Part shown: positions 688-38,960 of the stretch, piece by piece
Layout: each line of letters opens with the position of its first letter
How positions within the stretch are numbered: the stretch's first letter is position 1
Assembly (NCBI RefSeq): GCF_013167455.1
Contig: NZ_CP038328.1
Reading direction: 5' to 3' (one strand)
DNA: 64,000 bases
Origin: Escherichia coli O157:H7
GTDB taxonomy: Bacteria > Pseudomonadota > Gammaproteobacteria > Enterobacterales > Enterobacteriaceae
Notes under the pieces: generated by a model
Told to the model about the DNA's origin: nothing
The model's database searches: none
Seen by the model: only the letters and a program-made list of their open reading frames with translations
Program-made: the position numbers and the translations under genes

Positions 688-838
688 AACTTTGCCTCAG
701 GCATTAGAAATAGCGCGTTATTGTACACGGATTAATCGCACTACAAAACAGGATCACAAACATCCTCCGCAAACAAGTATTGCAGAGTCCCTTTGTGATC
801 GCTTTCACGGAGCATAAAAAGGGTTATCCAAAGGTCAT

Positions 839-887
839 TGCACCAATATGGTGCTTAATGTTTCCATTGAAGCACTATATTGGTGCA
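839..887 (+). promoter_or_regulatory. Two NtrC (NRI) enhancer sites upstream of glnA
   Basis: tgcaccaatatggtgct (839-855) and gcactatattggtgca (872-887) match the TGCACC-N5-GGTGCA NtrC dyad. Confidence 0.8.
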
Positions 888-1059: not shown

Positions 1060-2469
1060 ATGTCCGCTGAACACGTACTGACGATGCTGAACGAGCACGA
1101 AGTGAAGTTTGTTGATTTGCGCTTCACCGATACCAAAGGTAAAGAACAGCACGTCACTATCCCTGCTCATCAGGTGAATGCTGAATTCTTCGAAGAAGGC
1201 AAAATGTTTGACGGCTCCTCGATTGGCGGCTGGAAAGGCATTAACGAATCCGACATGGTGCTGATGCCAGACGCATCCACCGCAGTGATTGACCCGTTCT
1301 TCGCCGACTCCACCCTGATTATCCGTTGCGACATCCTTGAACCTGGCACCCTGCAAGGCTATGACCGTGACCCGCGCTCTATTGCGAAGCGCGCCGAAGA
1401 TTACCTGCGTTCCACTGGCATTGCCGACACCGTACTGTTCGGGCCAGAACCTGAATTCTTCCTGTTCGATGACATCCGTTTCGGATCATCTATCTCCGGT
1501 TCCCACGTTGCTATCGACGATATCGAAGGCGCATGGAACTCCTCCACCCAATACGAAGGTGGTAACAAAGGTCACCGTCCGGCAGTGAAAGGCGGTTACT
1601 TCCCGGTTCCGCCGGTAGACTCTGCTCAGGATATTCGTTCTGAAATGTGTCTGGTGATGGAACAGATGGGTCTGGTGGTTGAAGCCCATCACCACGAAGT
1701 AGCGACTGCTGGTCAGAACGAAGTGGCTACCCGCTTCAATACCATGACCAAAAAAGCTGACGAAATTCAGATCTACAAATATGTTGTGCACAACGTAGCG
1801 CACCGCTTCGGTAAAACCGCGACCTTTATGCCAAAACCGATGTTCGGTGATAACGGCTCCGGTATGCACTGCCACATGTCGCTGTCTAAAAACGGCGTTA
1901 ACCTGTTCGCAGGCGACAAATACGCAGGTCTGTCTGAGCAGGCGCTGTACTACATTGGCGGCGTAATCAAACACGCTAAAGCGATTAACGCCCTGGCAAA
2001 CCCGACCACCAACTCTTATAAGCGTCTGGTCCCGGGCTACGAAGCTCCGGTAATGCTGGCTTACTCTGCACGCAACCGTTCTGCGTCTATCCGTATTCCG
2101 GTGGTTTCTTCTCCGAAAGCACGTCGTATCGAAGTACGTTTCCCGGATCCGGCGGCTAACCCGTACCTGTGCTTTGCTGCCCTGCTGATGGCCGGTCTTG
2201 ATGGCATCAAGAACAAGATCCATCCGGGCGAAGCCATGGACAAAAACCTGTATGACCTGCCGCCGGAAGAAGCGAAAGAGATCCCACAGGTTGCAGGCTC
2301 TCTGGAAGAAGCACTGAACGAGCTGGATCTGGACCGCGAGTTCCTGAAAGCCGGTGGCGTGTTCACGGATGAAGCGATCGATGCGTACATCGCTCTGCGT
2401 CGCGAAGAAGATGACCGCGTGCGTATGACTCCGCATCCGGTAGAGTTTGAGCTGTACTACAGCGTCTAA
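1060..2469 (+). CDS. glnA: Glutamine synthetase
   Basis: 469-aa [35 protein letters not shown]... recognised as GlnA. Confidence 0.97.
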
Positions 2470-2530
2470 TAGTTGAAGTTGTACTACCCGGCGCAACAAC
2501 GCCGGGATTTAGTTGCCGTGGAAACTTTCA

Positions 2531-2556
2531 GCCCATCTCTGCATGGGCTTTTTTCT
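2531..2556 (+). terminator. Rho-independent terminator after glnA
   Basis: gcccat-ctctgc-atgggc stem-loop followed by TTTTTT. Confidence 0.7.
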
Positions 2557-2599
2557 CCGTCAATTCTCTGATGCTTCGCGCTTTTTATCCGTAAAAAGC

Positions 2600-2621
2600 T
2601 ATAATGCACTAAAATGGTGCA
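2600..2621 (+). promoter_or_regulatory. glnL promoter -10 (TATAAT 2600-2605) overlapped by NtrC operator
   Basis: tataatgcactaaaatggtgca: TATAAT hexamer overlapping a TGCAC-N7-GGTGCA dyad immediately upstream of glnL. Confidence 0.7.
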
Positions 2622-2642
2622 ACCTGTTCAGGAGACTGCTTT

Positions 2643-3692
2643 ATGGCAACAGGCACGCAGCCCGATGCTGGGCAGATCCTCAACTCGCTGATTAACAGTA
2701 TTTTGTTAATCGATGACAACCTGGCGATCCATTACGCCAACCCCGCCGCGCAACAACTGCTCGCCCAAAGCTCCCGCAAATTGTTTGGTACGCCGTTACC
2801 GGAACTGTTGAGCTACTTCTCATTAAATATTGAGCTGATGCAAGAAAGTCTGGAGGCGGGGCAAGGTTTTACCGATAACGAAGTGACGCTGGTCATCGAC
2901 GGTCGCTCGCATATCCTTTCTGTGACGGCCCAGCGTATGCCGGACGGCATGATCCTGCTGGAGATGGCGCCGATGGATAACCAGCGCCGCTTAAGCCAGG
3001 AACAGCTACAACATGCTCAACAAGTTGCTGCCCGTGATTTAGTGCGTGGCCTGGCACATGAGATTAAAAATCCGCTTGGCGGTTTACGTGGCGCGGCGCA
3101 GCTACTCAGCAAAGCATTACCTGACCCGTCACTGCTGGAATATACCAAAGTGATTATCGAACAGGCGGACCGGCTGCGAAATCTGGTCGACCGTCTGTTG
3201 GGGCCGCAGCTGCCCGGTACGCGCGTTACCGAAAGTATTCACAAAGTAGCTGAACGCGTGGTAACGCTGGTGTCGATGGAACTGCCGGACAACGTGCGGT
3301 TGATTCGTGATTACGATCCCAGCCTGCCGGAACTGGCGCACGACCCGGATCAAATTGAACAGGTCTTGCTGAATATTGTGCGCAATGCGCTACAGGCGCT
3401 GGGGCCGGAAGGCGGTGAAATCATTCTGCGTACCCGCACCGCGTTTCAACTGACCTTACACGGCGAACGCTATCGGCTGGCGGCGCGGATTGATGTGGAA
3501 GATAACGGGCCAGGCATTCCGCCTCATTTGCAGGATACGCTGTTTTACCCGATGGTCAGCGGCCGCGAAGGTGGCACCGGGCTTGGCTTATCCATCGCTC
3601 GTAATTTGATTGATCAGCATTCAGGCAAAATTGAATTTACCAGTTGGCCAGGGCATACCGAGTTCTCGGTTTACCTGCCTATCAGGAAATAA
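2643..3692 (+). CDS. glnL: Nitrogen regulation sensor histidine kinase NtrB (NRII)
   Basis: 349-aa ORF with H-box ([11 protein letters not shown]) and ATP-binding G-box motifs. Confidence 0.96.
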
Positions 3693-3703
3693 AGGTGACG
3701 TTT

Positions 3704-5113
3704 ATGCAACGAGGGATAGTCTGGGTAGTCGATGACGATAGTTCCATCCGTTGGGTGCTTGAACGTGCGCTCGCTGGAGCGGGTTTAACCTGTACAACAT
3801 TTGAGAACGGCGCGGAGGTACTGGAGGCGCTGGCGAGCAAAACGCCGGATGTGCTGCTTTCAGATATCCGTATGCCGGGAATGGACGGGCTGGCACTGCT
3901 CAAGCAGATTAAACAGCGCCATCCGATGCTTCCGGTCATCATTATGACCGCACATTCCGATCTGGATGCTGCCGTCAGCGCCTATCAACAAGGGGCGTTT
4001 GATTATCTGCCCAAACCGTTTGATATCGACGAAGCCGTGGCGCTGGTTGAGCGCGCCATCAGTCATTACCAGGAACAGCAGCAGCCGCGTAATGTTCAGC
4101 TTAACGGCCCAACGACCGATATCATCGGCGAAGCGCCAGCCATGCAGGACGTGTTCCGTATTATCGGTCGGCTTTCGCGTTCTTCTATTAGCGTGCTGAT
4201 TAACGGCGAATCCGGCACCGGTAAAGAACTGGTCGCTCATGCCCTGCATCGCCACAGTCCGCGAGCCAAAGCGCCATTTATCGCTCTGAATATGGCGGCT
4301 ATCCCGAAGGATTTGATCGAATCAGAACTGTTTGGTCACGAGAAAGGCGCGTTTACCGGCGCGAATACCATTCGTCAGGGGCGTTTTGAACAGGCTGATG
4401 GCGGTACATTATTTCTCGATGAAATTGGCGATATGCCGCTGGATGTGCAGACGCGTTTGCTGCGCGTGCTGGCAGACGGTCAGTTTTACCGCGTTGGCGG
4501 CTATGCGCCGGTGAAAGTGGATGTGCGGATTATCGCTGCCACTCACCAGAATCTCGAACAGCGGGTGCAGGAAGGTAAGTTCCGTGAGGATCTGTTCCAC
4601 CGCCTGAACGTTATCCGCGTTCATCTGCCGCCGCTGCGTGAGCGTCGGGAAGATATTCCCCGCCTGGCGCGCCATTTTTTACAGGTTGCCGCGCGAGAAC
4701 TGGGCGTAGAAGCGAAGTTGCTGCATCCGGAAACCGAAGCCGCGTTGACGCGTCTGGCGTGGCCAGGCAACGTGCGCCAGCTGGAAAACACCTGCCGCTG
4801 GCTAACGGTAATGGCTGCCGGACAGGAAGTGTTGATTCAGGATTTGCCTGGCGAACTGTTTGAATCAACGGTTGCGGAGAGTACTTCGCAAATGCAACCG
4901 GACAGTTGGGCGACGCTTCTTGCGCAGTGGGCAGACAGAGCGCTACGTTCCGGTCATCAAAATCTGCTTTCCGAAGCGCAGCCAGAGCTGGAGCGGACGT
5001 TACTGACGACCGCGTTGCGACATACGCAGGGGCATAAACAGGAGGCGGCGCGGCTACTCGGCTGGGGCCGCAACACCCTGACGCGTAAGTTAAAAGAGCT
5101 GGGGATGGAGTGA
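3704..5113 (+). CDS. glnG: Nitrogen regulation response regulator NtrC (NRI), sigma54 activator
   Basis: Start placed at internal ATG ([23 protein letters not shown]...) giving 469 aa; receiver domain, AAA+ GESGTGKE motif, C-terminal HTH. Confidence 0.95.
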
Positions 5114-5224
5114 TTCACGGCTTGTGTGTAAAGATTGATTATTGAGCGCAAATTGCTGGTATTTTGCGCTTTACTGTTCCGATAAGTTCAGTATGATCTT
5201 GCCCGGAAAACGGGGAGAGTCATT

Positions 5225-5335
5225 ATGCTGGAATCAATAATTAATCTGGTATCGAGTGGCGCAGTTGACAGCCACACACCGCAAACTGCTGTTGCTGCCG
5301 TGCTGTGTGCCGCGATGATTGGGCTGTTTAGTTGA
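5225..5335 (+). CDS. yshB: Small protein YshB (36 aa)
   Basis: ggagag SD then ATG; MLESIINLVSSGAVDSHTPQTAVAAVLCAAMIGLFS, matches my recollection of the small protein between glnG and hemN. Confidence 0.6.
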   Translation: MLESIINLVSSGAVDSHTPQTAVAAVLCAAMIGLFS

Positions 5336-5369
5336 GTTTCAGATTGCTGATGAAGTGCTCTTTGTTCAT

Positions 5370-5457
5370 GCCAGATGCTGCGTGAACGCCTTATCCGGCC
5401 TACAAAAGCAATATTTTCAACAGGTTTTGTAGGCCTGATAAGCGTAGCGCATCAGGC
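5370..5457. repeat. REP/BIME palindromic elements
   Basis: gccagatgctgcgtgaacgccttatccggcctac and gtaggcctgataagcgtagcgcatcaggc, classic REP consensus. Confidence 0.75.
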
Positions 5458-5524
5458 AATCTTGTTCTCAGCACATTGATGGCGCTTTCGTTTTCTACTT
5501 TGTAAACGAAGCGCCATTCACTAT

Positions 5525-6898
5525 TTAAATCACCCGAGAGAACTGCTGCATCCGCGCTTTCTGGCGCAGATAGGTATCAAAGCACATGCAAATGTTGCGG
5601 ATCAGCAAGCGACCTTTCGCCGTCACCTGTATTCCCTTCTCATCCACATCCACCAGCCCATCTTTTGCTAACGGGGCGAGCAGCTTGAGATCTTCCGCAA
5701 AGTAATCAGCGAAGTGCAAATCCCACTGTTTCTCAATAGGGGCGTAATCCAGACGGAAGTTGCAGATGAGCGACTTAATCACATCGCGGCGAATACAGTC
5801 ATCACGCGTTAGCGCAATACCACGCCACAGCGCATTGCCTTGTTCATCCACTTGCTGATAGTACTGCTTCAACTCTTTCTGGTTCTGCGCGTAGCAGTCG
5901 CCAATCATGCTGATGGCGGAAACGCCCATCCCCAGCAGATCGGTATCGCCCTGAGTGGTGTAGCCCTGGAAATTACGATGCAGCACGCCTTCACGCTGGG
6001 CCACCGCCAGCTCGTCATCCGGACGGGCAAAGTGATCCATACCGATAAACTGATAGCCCGATTGCGTCAGGAAGGCGATGGTTTCCTGCAGGATATCGAG
6101 TTTTTGCTGCGGACTCGGCAGGTCAGCATCTTTGATTTTGCGCTGAGCAGCAAAAATGGTCGGCAGATGCGCATAGTTAAAGACGCTCAGACGGTCAGGG
6201 TTTAGCTCCGCCACGCGTTTCAGGGTAAAGGCGAAACTTTCCGGCGTCTGTTTCGGCAGGCCGTAAATCAGGTCGATGTTGGTGGAGGTAAAGCCAATCT
6301 CACGCGCATGGTTAAGCAGCGCAAAGATAAACTCTTCATCCTGCTCGCGGTTAACCAGACGTTGCACTTCTTTGTTGAAGTCCTGCACGCCCATACTCAG
6401 GCGATTAAAGCCCTCGGCGCGTAAATGATCGAGTACATCCAGTTCGATTTCCCGCGGATCGACTTCGATCGAAATCTCCGCATCGGCATTGAACTGGAAG
6501 TTTTCGCGCAGCAGCTTCATCAGGCGGCTGATTTGCGCTTTATTAAGATACGTCGGCGTTCCGCCGCCCCAGTGCAGCTGGCTGACGTGACGCCCGGCGA
6601 ACAGCGGTGCACGATGGACGATTTCTTGCTCCAGCGCGTCCAGATACTGATCGGCCTTGTGCTGCTGGCGAGTAACAATCTTATTGCAGCCGCAGAAGTA
6701 ACAAAGCTTATGGCAGAACGGGATATGTACGTAGAGAGATAATGGACGCTCAGGATAGCGCGCCACGGCTTGTAAAAACGCCTGTTCGCCGAAGTCTTCT
6801 GAAAACTCCAGCGCGGTCGGGTACGAGGTGTATCGTGGCCCGGAATAGTTATATTTCTGGATCAGGGCCAGATCCCAGTCGATTTGCTGTACAGACAT
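5525..6898 (-). CDS. hemN: Oxygen-independent coproporphyrinogen III oxidase (radical SAM)
   Basis: ORF MSVQQIDWDLALIQKYNYSGPRYTSYPTALEF... with CxxxCxxC radical-SAM motif (CHKLCYFCGC); 457 aa from the ATG at 6898. Confidence 0.95.
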   Translation of the reverse strand: MSVQQIDWDLALIQKYNYSGPRYTSYPTALEFSEDFGEQAFLQAVARYPERPLSLYVHIPFCHKLCYFCGCNKIVTRQQHKADQYLDALEQEIVHRAPLFAGRHVSQLHWGGGTPTYLNKAQISRLMKLLRENFQFNADAEISIEVDPREIELDVLDHLRAEGFNRLSMGVQDFNKEVQRLVNREQDEEFIFALLNHAREIGFTSTNIDLIYGLPKQTPESFAFTLKRVAELNPDRLSVFNYAHLPTIFAAQRKIKDADLPSPQQKLDILQETIAFLTQSGYQFIGMDHFARPDDELAVAQREGVLHRNFQGYTTQGDTDLLGMGVSAISMIGDCYAQNQKELKQYYQQVDEQGNALWRGIALTRDDCIRRDVIKSLICNFRLDYAPIEKQWDLHFADYFAEDLKLLAPLAKDGLVDVDEKGIQVTAKGRLLIRNICMCFDTYLRQKARMQQFSRVI

Positions 6899-7086
6899 GC
6901 TCACTCCTTCCGATGGCGTCTCTGGCGGCTACGGCGTACCGGCGGATGCCCGTTTCGGGTCATCAGCCGGTTGCGCAGCCACTTTTGTCGCCGCGACAAC
7001 CGCTGTAGTTTAACGAATAACCACACCAGATAACATATAACCGGAAGGGTTATCAGCAGAACGGGAAGGCCCACGGCGGCAATCCG

Positions 7087-7593
7087 TTAGTTGCCCCGCA
7101 GCAGACGCATCATGTCTTCTTGCTTCTCGTCTTCTTCCTCTTCTTCGTCATCGTCATAAGAGAGGCCGAGTTTCTGCATCAACTCATCAATACGATCCAG
7201 TTTAGCATCCACCCAGGATTGCTCTTCGGCACTCAGGGTTTCGCCTGCTTCCAGACGTTCCAGCAGCGCATCCAGACGCTCATCCGTTTCTAGTAATTCC
7301 AACTCCGCCTGCGGTGAAAGCATAGGTTTCTCACTCTTCGGTTTGTGCTGTTTGGTGACTTTTTCAGTCACGCCCAATGGAATAGGGGTTTTACTGCCAA
7401 TACGTGGATCTTTCGGTGCGTTCTGGCCTTTGCTGCCTGACGTGTTGTTTCCGCCCGCTGCGCGGCTGCCCGGCGCATGACCACGACGTTTTTTCTGACG
7501 CTTGCGGTCACGAGCTTCCTGATTCAGCTCTTCGCGCGTTTTGCGACGCGCTTTTGCATGACCTTTGCTGCGTGATGGTGAAGATGGTTTCAT
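7087..7593 (-). CDS. yihI: Der GTPase-activating protein YihI
   Basis: [32 protein letters not shown]... basic N-terminus, acidic C-terminal tail. Confidence 0.9.
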
Positions 7594-7660
7594 AATGGTT
7601 CGTCTTTTAGCCGTTTTATTCAGTATAGATTTGCGGCGGAATCTAACAGAAAGCAAGCAA

Positions 7661-7904
7661 AGAAAAAAGGCGACAGATTACTCTGTCGCCTTTTTTCCTG
7701 ACTCATAACCCTTAACGGGTCTTACAATCCTTGCAGGCCGCCAACACACCCTGTTTTTCCATTAGCCGGAACAATCCGTGTTGATTCCATTTCCGTTTAA
7801 TTACGTCTCCGGACGTTTGTCTTCCTGACAATCCTCTGTCTTCGCCTCCTGGCGCTCCTGACCCTCATCCTGAGTCATTGTTCCTGTTAGCGTCCTCGCT
7901 CTAT
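7661..7904 (-). ncRNA. csrC: CsrC small RNA (CsrA-sequestering)
   Basis: Minus-strand sequence atagagcgaggacgctaacaggaacaatgactcaggatgagggtcaggagcg... with many GGA motifs, ending in ggcgacag/ctgtcgcc hairpin plus T-run; lies between yihI and engB. Confidence 0.85.
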
Positions 7905-8174
7905 GGGTGCTACTTTACGCCTTTGCTTTAAACAAACAATCAACCGCCATCAGTATTTGCACATTTTCAGAGTTTTATATAAAAGCAATTAACTGATTTA
8001 TATAGCTTATTTGACATGCATCGCAGAATTTTCTCTGCTATTTCGCATAAAGACTATCGGCAATGTCTCACAAAGCGTATGGCTTTTACTTACAACGCTC
8101 ACGCCGAAAAATCCGCCTTTTATTATGGTTCAGGTATAATCGCCGCAAAGCTTTGACTGACGGAGACGACCGCT

Positions 8175-8807
8175 TTGACTAATTTGAATTATCAACAGAC
8201 GCATTTTGTGATGAGTGCGCCTGATATTCGCCACCTACCTTCCGATACCGGAATTGAAGTGGCTTTTGCAGGCCGTTCCAACGCAGGTAAATCCAGCGCG
8301 CTGAACACGCTGACTAACCAGAAAAGCCTGGCTCGTACCTCAAAAACCCCTGGACGCACCCAGCTTATCAACCTGTTTGAAGTGGCTGACGGCAAGCGTC
8401 TGGTTGACTTGCCTGGGTACGGTTATGCGGAAGTCCCGGAAGAGATGAAGCGCAAATGGCAGCGCGCGCTCGGCGAGTACCTCGAAAAACGTCAGAGCCT
8501 ACAAGGTCTGGTAGTGCTAATGGATATTCGCCATCCGCTGAAAGATTTGGATCAGCAGATGATTGAGTGGGCGGTAGACAGCAATATCGCCGTGCTGGTA
8601 CTGCTGACCAAAGCGGACAAACTGGCAAGCGGCGCACGTAAAGCGCAATTGAATATGGTGCGTGAAGCGGTGCTGGCGTTTAACGGTGATGTGCAGGTTG
8701 AAACGTTTTCTTCGCTGAAGAAACAAGGCGTGGACAAGCTGCGGCAGAAACTGGATACCTGGTTTAACGAGATGCAGCCTGTAGAAGAAACGCAGGACGG
8801 CGAATAA
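8175..8807 (+). CDS. engB: Ribosome biogenesis GTPase EngB/YihA
   Basis: 210-aa [25 protein letters not shown]...[13 protein letters not shown]1 motif; apparent TTG start. Confidence 0.92.
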
Positions 8808-8825
8808 TTTTCTTACCTTAATGCT

Positions 8826-8910
8826 TATGCCGGATGTGGCGTATCCGGCCCATAAATTCAATAGATTACAATTCTACCGTTGGCCTGATAAACATGGTGC
8901 ATCAGGCATT
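8826..8910. repeat. REP-like palindromic elements
   Basis: gccggatgtggcgtatccggcc and ggcctgataaacatggtgcatcaggca imperfect REP units. Confidence 0.5.
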
Positions 8911-8932
8911 ACGGATCTTTCCTTTCGCCCAA

Positions 8933-9041
8933 TAAAAAACGCCCCAGTCATTACTGACTGGGGCGGCTAAAATATTCAGCCAAATCCGATTACGTGAAGT
9001 AAAAGGTCTGAAAGATAGAACATCTTACCTCTGTACCCTAC
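8933..9041 (-). ncRNA. spf: Spot 42 small RNA
   Basis: Minus strand reads GTAGGGTACAGAGGTAAGATGTTCTATCTTTCAGACCTTTTACTTCACGTAATCGGATTTGGCTGAATATTTTAGCCGCCCCAGTCAGTAATGACTGGGGCGTTTTTTA. Confidence 0.9.
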
Positions 9042-9188
9042 GCGACTAACTTTACTCTTTTTTGTTCAGTTCAGAAAGCACTTTTTGTAATTTTTTTTCA
9101 GTTGTTGCATAGGAATTTCTAATAGCCATCACAAAACGTGACAGCTTATGTTGCTTACTTACGAAAAAAGGGCATGTTCAGGCGAATC

Positions 9189-11975
9189 TTAGTGCGCCTG
9201 ATCCCAGTTTTCGCCACTCCCCACTTCCACCAGCAACGGCACATCCAGACGGGTACAGTTTTCCATCAGTTGATGAATCTGCTTCGCAACGGCATCGACA
9301 TCATCTCTATGAACTTCAAATACCAGTTCATCGTGTACCTGCATGATCATACGTACACGCGGTTGCTCAGCCTGTAACCACGCATCAACGGCAATCATCG
9401 CCCGTTTGATAATGTCGGCGGCGGTTCCCTGCATTGGCGCGTTAATGGCTGCACGTTCAGCCGCTGCACGACGAGCACCATTGCTGGATTTGATATCCGG
9501 CAGATACAGACGGCGTCCGTCCAGCGTTTCAACGTAGCCCTGCTCTTTCGCCTGAGCACGGGTGCGTTCCATATACTCCAGCACGCCAGGGTAGCGTTCG
9601 AAGTAAAGGTCCATGTACTTCTGCGCTTCTTTACGTGGAATGTTCAATTGCCGCGCCAGACCGAAAGCACTCATGCCATAAATCAGACCAAAGTTGATCG
9701 CTTTCGCGCTACGGCGTTGCTCGCTGGTGACGGTTTCCAGTGGCAAACCAAACACTTCTGCCGCCGTTGCCCGGTGGATATCTTTTCCTTCCGCGAATGC
9801 GGTCAGCAAGCCTTTGTCACGCGAGAGATGCGCCATAATGCGCAGTTCAATCTGCGAGTAGTCCGCTGAGACAATCACATAATCCTCTGGCGCAATAAAC
9901 GCCTGGCGGATACGACGACCTTCTTCGTTACGCACCGGAATGTTTTGCAGGTTAGGATCGGTTGACGATAAACGTCCCGTTGCAGTTACAGCCTGGTGAT
10001 AAGAGGTATGCACACGCCCGGTTTTCGGGTTGATCATCAGCGGCAGCTTGTCGGTGTAAGTCGATTTCAGCTTCGCCAGACCACGATACTCCAGAATCAC
10101 TTTTGGCAACGGATAGTCCAGCGCCAGTTCTTCCAGTACCTCTTCCGACGTTGACGGCGCGCCACCCGGCGTTTTCTTCAGCGGTTTAATGCCCTGTTTT
10201 TCAAACAGAATGGTTTGTAACTGCTTGGTGGAAGAAAGGTTAAATTCCTCACCTGCAATTTCATGCGCTTTCTTTTCCAGCTCAGCCAGACGAAGGGTGA
10301 GCTCTTCAGAATGATTGTGCAGCACTTTCGGATCGATCTTCACACCGTTACGTTCAATGCGTGAAAGTACTGGCACCAGCGGCATTTCGATATTCTCGAA
10401 GACGTTCAACGGCCCTTTGTGTTTTTGCAGATCCGGCCACATTTTCAGATGCAACTGCAAGGTGACATCAGCATCTTCGGCGGCGTAACGTCCGGCCTCT
10501 TCGAGGGCAATCTGGTTAAAAGTCAGTTGATTTTTGCCTTTACCCGCAATCTCTTCAAAAGTGATGGTTTTGTGCTTCAACCAACGTTCCGCGAGGCTGT
10601 CCATATCGTGACGCCCGGCAACGCTATTGAGAATGTAGGACTCCAGCATGGTATCAAACGCAATCCCACGCAGCTCAATGCCGTAATTCGCCAGAATACC
10701 GCGATCGTATTTCAGGTTTTGCCCGACCTTCAGCGCCTTTTCATCTTCCAGCAGCGGTTTTAGCAACTCGAGTGCACGCTCGCGAGAGATTTGATCGGGC
10801 GCATCAAGATAATCATGAGCAACCGGAATATATGCCGCTACGCCTGGCTCGATAGCAAAAGAAAGCCCGACCAGGTTAGCTGAGATGTTATCAAGGCTGT
10901 CGGTTTCGGTATCAAATGCAAATACCGGCGCTTTTTCCAGCTTCGCAATCCACGCTTTCAGTGTTTCTTCATCAAGGATGGTGACGTAGTTGTCATAAGA
11001 AATCACCGTTGCCGTCACTTCTGGTGCTTCGTCTGCAACACTGGTTTCCTGTGGCTTCGCGGCTGGTTTTGCCCCTTTGGCCTGTAACCATTTGCCCGCT
11101 TCGACATCAGCAGTCCAGCGTTTGAACTCATACTTTTTGAACAGCCCCAACAACTCTTCCGCTGCCGGTTGCTGCACTTCCAGTTGTTCACAGGTCAGCT
11201 CCAGTTCAACGTCGGTTTTAATCGTCGCCAGCTGGTATGAGAGATAAGCAACTTCTTTGTTTTGCTCGAGCTTCGCTGCCATTGTTTTCGCGCCACGGAA
11301 GCTCAACCCAGCAATTTTTTCTGGCTCGGCATACAGCGTATCCAGCCCGCCAAGACCTTGCAGCAATGCCTGCGCGGTTTTTTCACCGACGCCCGGTACG
11401 CCAGGAATGTTATCAGAGGAGTCACCCATCAGCGCCAGGAAATCGATGATCAGTTCTGGCGGCACGCCGTACTTATTCACCACCTCTTCCGGTCCGAGGA
11501 TGGTATTCGTCATGGTGTTGATAAGCGTAATATTTGGCGTCACCAGCTGCGCCATATCTTTATCGCCAGTGCTGATCAGCACCGGACGCCCGGCTTTTTC
11601 GGCTTCGCGCGCCAGAGTACCGATAACGTCGTCCGCTTCTACGCCAGAAACCGCCAGCAGCGGCAGTCCCATCGCTTTAACCATCGCGTGCAAGGGTTCG
11701 ATTTGTGCTCGCAGATCGTCCGGCATTGGCGGGCGATGTGATTTGTAATGTTCAAACAGTTCATCACGAAAGGTTTTTCCCTTGGCGTCAAAGACCACCG
11801 CTGCATGCGTCGGTTTATATTGCATGATCAGACTGCGCAGCATGTTGAGGACACCATACATCGCACCGGTCGGCTCGCCTGCGCTGTTAGTCAGCGGGGG
11901 AAACGCGTGATATGCGCGATAAAGATAAGATGAACCATCTACAAGGATAAGTGGATTTTGGGGGATCTGAACCAT
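9189..11975 (-). CDS. polA: DNA polymerase I
   Basis: 928-aa [45 protein letters not shown]... Confidence 0.97.
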
Positions 11976-18134: not shown

Positions 18135-18254
18135 ATGCCTGGCAGTTCCCTACTCTCGCATGGGGAGACCCCACACTACCATCGGCGCTACGGCGTTTCA
18201 CTTCTGAGTTCGGCATGGGGTCAGGTGGGACCACCGCGCTAAGGCCGCCAGGCA
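18135..18254 (-). rRNA. rrfA: 5S ribosomal RNA
   Basis: 120-nt match to E. coli 5S (TGCCTGGCGGC...GGAACTGCCAGGCAT) on minus strand. Confidence 0.95.
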
Positions 18255-18346: not shown

Positions 18347-21251
<2,905 letters not shown>

Positions 21252-21434
21252 TCACAACCCGAAGATGTTTCTTTCGATTCATCATCGTGTTGCGAAAATT
21301 TGAGAGACTCACGAACAACTCTCGTTGTTCAGTGTTTCAATTTTCAGCTTGATCCAGATTTTTAAAGAGCAAAACTTCGCAGTGAACCTTTGCAGGTACA
21401 CTCTGAAGTATTTTTTATTTAATCACTACAGAGA

Positions 21435-21697: not shown

Positions 21698-23239
<1,542 letters not shown>

Positions 23240-36717: not shown

Positions 36718-38960
<2,243 letters not shown>

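Follow-up and report, generated by a model that had tools for sequence, protein, structure and literature searches.

The minus strand of the window, by which is meant the whole 64-kb stretch of DNA analysed here, carries the small-RNA gene csrC between yihI and engB/yihA (Table 1). The element is already known: it is CsrC, differing from the Escherichia coli K-12 reference by one base. The reading that we consider very probable is that csrC ends in an intrinsic terminator of its own which serves this one gene and which, while able on paper to act in both directions, is evolving as a one-way element. A preliminary description of the region had assigned CsrC to the yihI-engB intergenic region, which the gene order bears out, and had credited it with a 'shared bidirectional terminator'. 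The latter is unsupported: csrC lies in tandem with yihI and is divergent from engB, so that nothing converges on the hairpin, and a shared terminator needs a convergent partner.

Table 1. Positions of csrC, its parts and its neighbours in the window
Feature	Position	Strand	Remarks
glnA-glnL-glnG-yshB	about 1060-5300	+	
hemN	5525-6898	-	
yihI	7087-7593	-	ATG at 7593-7591
Conserved spacer, outside csrC	7622-7650	-	TATACT at 7627-7622, putative yihI promoter
csrC (CsrC sRNA, about 246 nt)	7659-7904	-	between yihI and engB/yihA; start taken as 7904; 3' end within the U-tract 7659-7668
csrC terminator U-tract (UUUUUUCUUU)	7659-7668	-	U6CUUU
Intrinsic terminator hairpin	7669-7690	-	sense RNA GGCGACAGA / GUAA / UCUGUCGCC; 9 bp, 4-nt loop; palindromic except for the loop
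A-tract on csrC sense strand (plus-strand T6)	7691-7696	-	overlaps the last GGA (7696-7698)
14th GGA	start 7698	-	at the foot of the terminator
Internal CsrC 3' end	7703	-	K-12 4051237(+); only end near csrC in the accessible part of the Adams 2021 Term-seq supplement (PMC7815308)
GGA-rich body	7730-7897	-	GGA starts 7895, 7884, 7870, 7858, 7849, 7834, 7825, 7810, 7794, 7788, 7777, 7760, 7730
csrC core promoter, putative	7912-7939	-	TTGTTT (7939-7934), 16-nt spacer, TAAAGT (7917-7912), start 7904; read from the sequence
engB/yihA	8175-8807	+	
spf	8933-9051	-	
polA	9189-11975	-	

Identity, extent and context of csrC

A scan of the whole window at Rfam gathering thresholds, the check that had been proposed for this locus, returned CsrC (RF00084) on the minus strand at 7651-7904, with 277.9 bits against a gathering score of 61, an E-value of about 1e-87, and a match that spans model positions 1-255 of 255. 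The interval 7659-7904(-) aligns without gaps to K-12 csrC (b4457; NC_000913.3, 4051036-4051281) and is identical to it at 245 of 246 positions. CsrC had been recognised at 7661-7904 in the preliminary description, and these two results confirm it; the 5' end given there is exact and the 3' end lies no more than 2 nt from the annotation. The locus is also that of K-12 CsrC in its place between yihA/engB and yihI, in its strand relations, in the length of the RNA and in its terminator. The sole difference is an A-to-T change at RNA position 144 (window 7761; A in K-12, T in the window), within a segment that varies between species. T is found at this position in other Escherichia representatives as well (L011, L027 and L040), so that it may be K-12 that carries the derived base.

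The window is E. coli chromosome of the O157:H7 type. Several O157 genomes match its region 7000-8900 at 100% identity, and 5,425 of 5,426 complete E. coli genomes contain that region. The significance of the identification is small beyond correct annotation. In the RefSeq/PGAP record of O157:H7 strain PV15-279 the csrC non-coding RNA is omitted. Inside the gene, at 7712-7878 (-), there is instead a pseudo-CDS, probably an artefact of the annotation, labelled 'hypothetical protein; frameshifted; internal stop'.

Transcription of csrC would start at 7904 and proceed along the minus strand to give an RNA of about 246 nt. The putative core promoter agrees with the consensus at only 8 of 12 positions, which is why a promoter scan did not pick it up; mean conservation upstream of 7904 is only about 0.67 in the alignment of 46 sequences described below.

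For comparison with relatives, a DNA search pattern was derived from the conserved 5' portion of CsrC, at some distance from the terminator. Run against contigs representing one genome per species, it recovered 46 loci from 12 genera (Escherichia, Salmonella, Citrobacter, Enterobacter, Klebsiella, Raoultella, Leclercia, Lelliottia, Pseudocitrobacter, Pseudescherichia, Superficieibacter and Huaxiibacter). As in the window, where engB(+) is divergent from csrC(-) and csrC(-), yihI(-) and hemN(-) stand in tandem, yihI follows csrC in the same orientation in every one of the 45 loci whose sequence reaches it, hemN comes next in the 38 of 38 that cover it, and engB is divergent in 42 of 42. The same '<- -> ->' gene order is given by Kulkarni et al. 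2006 (PMC1488887). Both the full-length RF00084 match above the gathering score and this yihA/engB-yihI context place the RNA in the CsrC family, and on all criteria that sequence can supply it is CsrC.

GGA motifs and the fold of the RNA

The GGA motifs of Csr small RNAs bind and sequester dimers of CsrA, and CsrC is a textbook antagonist of that protein; for the near-identical K-12 CsrC, published work has established that it binds multiple CsrA dimers and counteracts CsrA. The csrC interval contains 14 GGA motifs in the sense direction, nine of them as AGGA, against two in the antisense direction, so that the GGA-rich repeats remarked on earlier are borne out, and all 14 are common to the window and to K-12 csrC. 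Nowhere else in the 64-kb window, on either strand, does a 244-nt stretch reach this density of GGA (median 2-3, 99.9th percentile 13). Dinucleotide shuffles of the CsrC RNA already give 8.9 +/- 2.0 GGA, and the excess is therefore due in part to a composition rich in G+A.

The proposal that GGA motifs be counted in predicted loops was also followed up. When the Rfam consensus structure was threaded on the sequence, six of the motifs fell in hairpin loops, five in single-stranded linkers, and three in partly or fully paired positions, one of these last being at the foot of the terminator; 11 of 14 thus lie in loops or linkers. The minimum-energy fold of the single sequence has -87.7 kcal/mol (z = -7.0 against shuffles) and leaves seven of the 14 fully unpaired. 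Conservation of the GGA columns is strong among the 46 sequences (12 genera), and compensatory changes occur in three small hairpins that present GGA. The RNA would be drawn as a row of short hairpins presenting GGA in loops and linkers, where these motifs would bind and sequester CsrA dimers in the manner known for the Csr system. For CsrC of the window itself, both the binding of CsrA and its sequestration through the GGA sites are inferred from the 245/246 identity to the K-12 RNA that has been studied.

Of the features by which Kulkarni et al. 2006 (PMC1488887) recognise CsrA-sequestering small RNAs, the following are present: a high density of GGA/AGGA on one strand, an intergenic position, GGA in loops or unpaired regions, and a Rho-independent terminator at the 3' end. 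A further feature on their list is a conserved upstream site of the UvrY/SirA type, which would fall in the stretch before 7904 with its mean conservation of only about 0.67. The closest comparison is with CsrB, which belongs to the same Rfam clan (CL00106) and likewise sequesters CsrA, has repeated GGA hairpins, ends in a strong intrinsic terminator, and is closely followed by a co-directional protein gene (yqcC), as csrC is by yihI. CsrB is longer (369 nt, with about 22 GGA sites), and its terminator has no A-tract beside the stem (…GAACC-GGGAGCGCUGUG…), so that, unlike that of CsrC, it is not palindromic together with its U-tract.

The terminator hairpin and the spacer to yihI

The hairpin at 7669-7690 had been described as flanked by an A-run on one side and a T-run on the other, and this proved correct, the runs being A6 and T6; the hairpin has a 9-bp stem and a 4-nt loop. 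Read along the plus strand, the element consists of A6 (7663-7668), GGCGACAGA (7669-7677), TTAC (7678-7681), TCTGTCGCC (7682-7690) and T6 (7691-7696), with 7669-7677 pairing with 7682-7690 around the loop at 7678-7681. The core hairpin is predicted at -15.9 kcal/mol in the sense RNA, where it is followed by UUUUUUCUUU, and at -15.0 kcal/mol in plus-strand RNA, where it is followed by UUUUUUCC; there are six U after the hairpin on each strand, its z-score is about -7, and the tail scores in the window are 5.17 in reverse and 5.72 forward. Transcription of csrC would stop at this 9-bp GC-rich stem, followed by U6CUUU. It is the start codon of yihI, and not its end, that lies 65 nt past the csrC 3' end, and a terminator so placed would separate csrC transcription from that of yihI-hemN. 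The A6 on the 5' side of the stem makes the whole a near-palindrome, whose opposite strand would also form a hairpin followed by six U. When the full RNA is folded to minimum energy, pairing between A-tract and U-tract lengthens the terminal helix to 15-18 bp; the mature RNA would most likely show the same pairing of A-tract and U-tail, its 3' end closed in a long helix.

A consensus terminator scan lists the minus-strand site only, and the absence of a plus-strand call is a limit of the scan rule and not of the sequence, because extension of the stem through A:T pairs consumes the plus-strand T-run. A separate scan of the whole window missed the csrC terminator, having extended the stem through A:T pairs and one G:C pair; by that scan, two of nine other terminator-like hairpins in the window have at least five A in the 8 nt upstream, a proportion that is only a rough guide. 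Rfam matches at the hairpin to Thr_leader, STnc40, sraA and miRNA models, on both strands, were all under their gathering scores and were set aside as generic terminator look-alikes.

The loop of the hairpin differs between genera in an orderly fashion. AGTAAT (Escherichia, Superficieibacter, Raoultella and Klebsiella) is the reverse complement of ATTACT (the Citrobacter freundii group, Salmonella and Pseudocitrobacter), and AGCAAT (C. amalonaticus and C. sedlakii) that of ATTGCT (Enterobacter, Leclercia, Lelliottia and Huaxiibacter), which looks like repeated inversion of the centre of the palindrome. These two exact pairs, as the signature of repeated inversion, would fit a proposal in which the symmetry of the element has been kept by template switching from arm to arm rather than by selection for termination in both directions, while the T-rich run does a second job in the DNA, acting as an UP-like element for a yihI promoter that would have TATACT (7627-7622) as its -10. 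On this view it is the second job that would account for the strict conservation of hairpin and T-tract. Column identity in the spacer beyond csrC is 0.96-0.99 at 7620-7629 and at 7640-7649 among the 46 sequences, above most of the CsrC body, and outside the positions dictated by the search pattern no part of the locus is better conserved than 7620-7649 and 7660-7669, at 0.96-1.0. If the putative -10 of yihI is indeed the TATACT, the T-tract of the terminator would stand at about -40 to -55. The -35 region, however, is weak (at most three of six positions), the site was passed over by the promoter scan, and no transcription start for yihI was found in the portions of the Cappable-seq and SMRT-Cappable-seq supplements that were available. 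The terminator alone can, moreover, explain the conservation of the stem and the U-tract, and an UP-like role would add to the reading of the element as the csrC terminator without replacing it. We consider this second job unlikely, and return to the csrC terminator as a one-gene, one-way element.

Direction of termination and neighbouring features

The claim that the hairpin can terminate transcription from either direction is a fair prediction as far as the two folding energies and the six U on each strand go, and reverse termination in vitro is plausible on the letters alone; conservation, however, favours the csrC-sense direction. The sense U-tract UUUUUUCUUU, with its invariant TTTTTTCTTT, is identical in all 46 sequences that extend to it, the window included. 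The A-tract, in contrast, is A6 in 38, A5 in four and A4 in four, the four A beside the stem being invariant and the outer two variable; its shortening to A4-A5 in these eight lowers the reverse tail score to 4.15-4.9, while the sense tail stays at 5.7-5.85 throughout. The arms of the stem do not vary in 42 of the 46, and the other four (two Salmonella subspecies and two Citrobacter) share an A-to-G change. With the resulting stem, GGCGGCAG, the sense RNA still pairs, as G·U (-14.4 kcal/mol), but the antisense RNA is left with A·C, a mismatch (-10.8). A fixed U-tract, an eroding A-tract and a G·U pair tolerated in the sense strand only are, taken as a sequence pattern, what is seen in a one-way element, and this asymmetry between strands (G·U against A·C, and erosion of the tracts) offers a simple way to tell one-way from two-way terminators.

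Bidirectional terminators lie between convergent transcription units and give 3' ends on both strands, as exemplified by SraL/soxR (PMC2190706) and by a class known from SEnd-seq data and cited in a preprint (bioRxiv 10.1101/2022.10.23.513370). The csrC hairpin resembles those of convergent genes in being GC-rich, in its flanking A- and T-tracts, and in having a stable hairpin with a U-tract on both strands, but its neighbours are tandem (yihI) and divergent (engB). Two convergent units both ending at the hairpin were found neither in the window nor at related loci, where no convergent partner was present in any of the 40 with both flanking genes in the sequence; nor are both tracts and both-strand pairing conserved among the 46 sequences. 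With a palindromic terminator, the orientation of the neighbours should be checked before it is called 'shared'. True convergent junctions do exist nearby, at engB(+)/spf(-) (8808-8965) and at yshB/glnG(+)/hemN(-) (5300-5525). The Spot 42 terminator at the former (8940-8965) has no A-tract, and the plus-strand 3' end at about 5518 has a hairpin upstream of it without a clear U-run.

On a rival reading the element is a functional two-way terminator, which would, besides ending csrC, stop antisense or pervasive plus-strand transcription arriving from yihI-hemN before it reached the csrC promoter and engB. Pervasive antisense transcription is possible without a consensus promoter. Several observations do tell against the one-way reading and for this one. 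The reverse element in the window is nearly equal to the forward one; the reverse strand scores 42.9 bits against that portion of the Rfam CsrC model which covers the terminator; and the antisense hairpin of E. coli, with its loop ATTACT, is exactly the sense terminator hairpin of Citrobacter and Salmonella. Retention of A6 in 38 of 46 points to some constraint on the A-tract, and the literature counts upstream A-rich tracts among the characteristics of bidirectional terminators (PMC12207403). The same source, however, raises a stem-stabilising reading of such tracts beside the bidirectional one, and pairing with the U-tail, together with overlap with the last GGA, are sufficient candidates to explain why A6 has been kept. 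No locus examined has a convergent gene, no sigma-70-like promoter is predicted on the plus strand between about 5200 and 7700, and the nearest plus-strand genes to the left (glnALG and yshB) end near 5518, where the accessible Term-seq tables give a strong 3' end (K-12 4053422, minus strand). These points, with the shortened A-tract in eight species, the sense-only G·U in four and the unchanging sense U-tract, make termination in both directions in the cell very unlikely, and a one-way csrC terminator is the reading retained. Also most improbable is a combination in which the hairpin insulates against antisense transcription from yihI-hemN, the T-tract serves as an upstream element of yihI, and the symmetry is maintained by inversion or template switching.

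Published 3'-end data were consulted with the conversion K-12 = 4058940 - window. The portion of the Adams 2021 Term-seq 3'-end tables (PMC7815308) that could be consulted lists no opposite-strand 3' end at the hairpin (K-12 4051244-4051249); this silence is weak evidence against two-way termination, because the expected 3' end of the sense terminator is likewise unlisted there, possibly as a fully base-paired 3' end ligates poorly. The internal end at 7703 lies in the unpaired linker UAUGA|GUCAGG just 5' of the terminator. For CsrB, an RNase E 'necessary cleavage site' has been described immediately upstream of the terminator (PMC5027483), and since the linker position matches it, the 7703 end is probably, by analogy, a product of processing or decay, perhaps by RNase E or an exonuclease, and not a site of termination. 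No entries fall within the csrC/yihI coordinate range in those parts of the Cappable-seq and SMRT-Cappable-seq supplements that were accessible, and a literature search found no paper with the phrase 'csrC terminator'. From what is established for the Csr system, turnover of CsrC would run through RNase E, PNPase and CsrD.

Two open reading frames near the hairpin were considered. The plus-strand ORF 7565-7708 (47 aa), which crosses it, begins with TTG, runs antisense to the 5' end of yihI and was dismissed as having no support. X067 (174 bp) has been reported from EHEC EDL933 as a 'novel gene', listed beside yihI, translated according to ribosome profiling and co-transcribed with yihI (PMC4765031). 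It was entertained as an antisense ORF running towards the csrC terminator and rejected, its 174 bp and its co-transcription with yihI appearing to fit a minus-strand ORF of 57 aa at 6901-7074; this lies between yihI and hemN, overlaps the start region of hemN, corresponds to X067 in size and context, and is annotated neither in K-12 nor in the O157 RefSeq record.

Elsewhere in the window, Rfam matches at the gathering threshold were obtained for the Erse sRNA at 38355-38606 (-), with 316 bits, where the matched sequence closes with …AAAUGA and possibly overlaps coding sequence, and for the ES222 sRNA and StyR-44 at 769-876 (-) and 21259-21367 (-), respectively. The last of these lies within an rRNA operon that comprises 16S (21698-23239), two tRNAs, 23S (18347-21251) and 5S (18137-18252).
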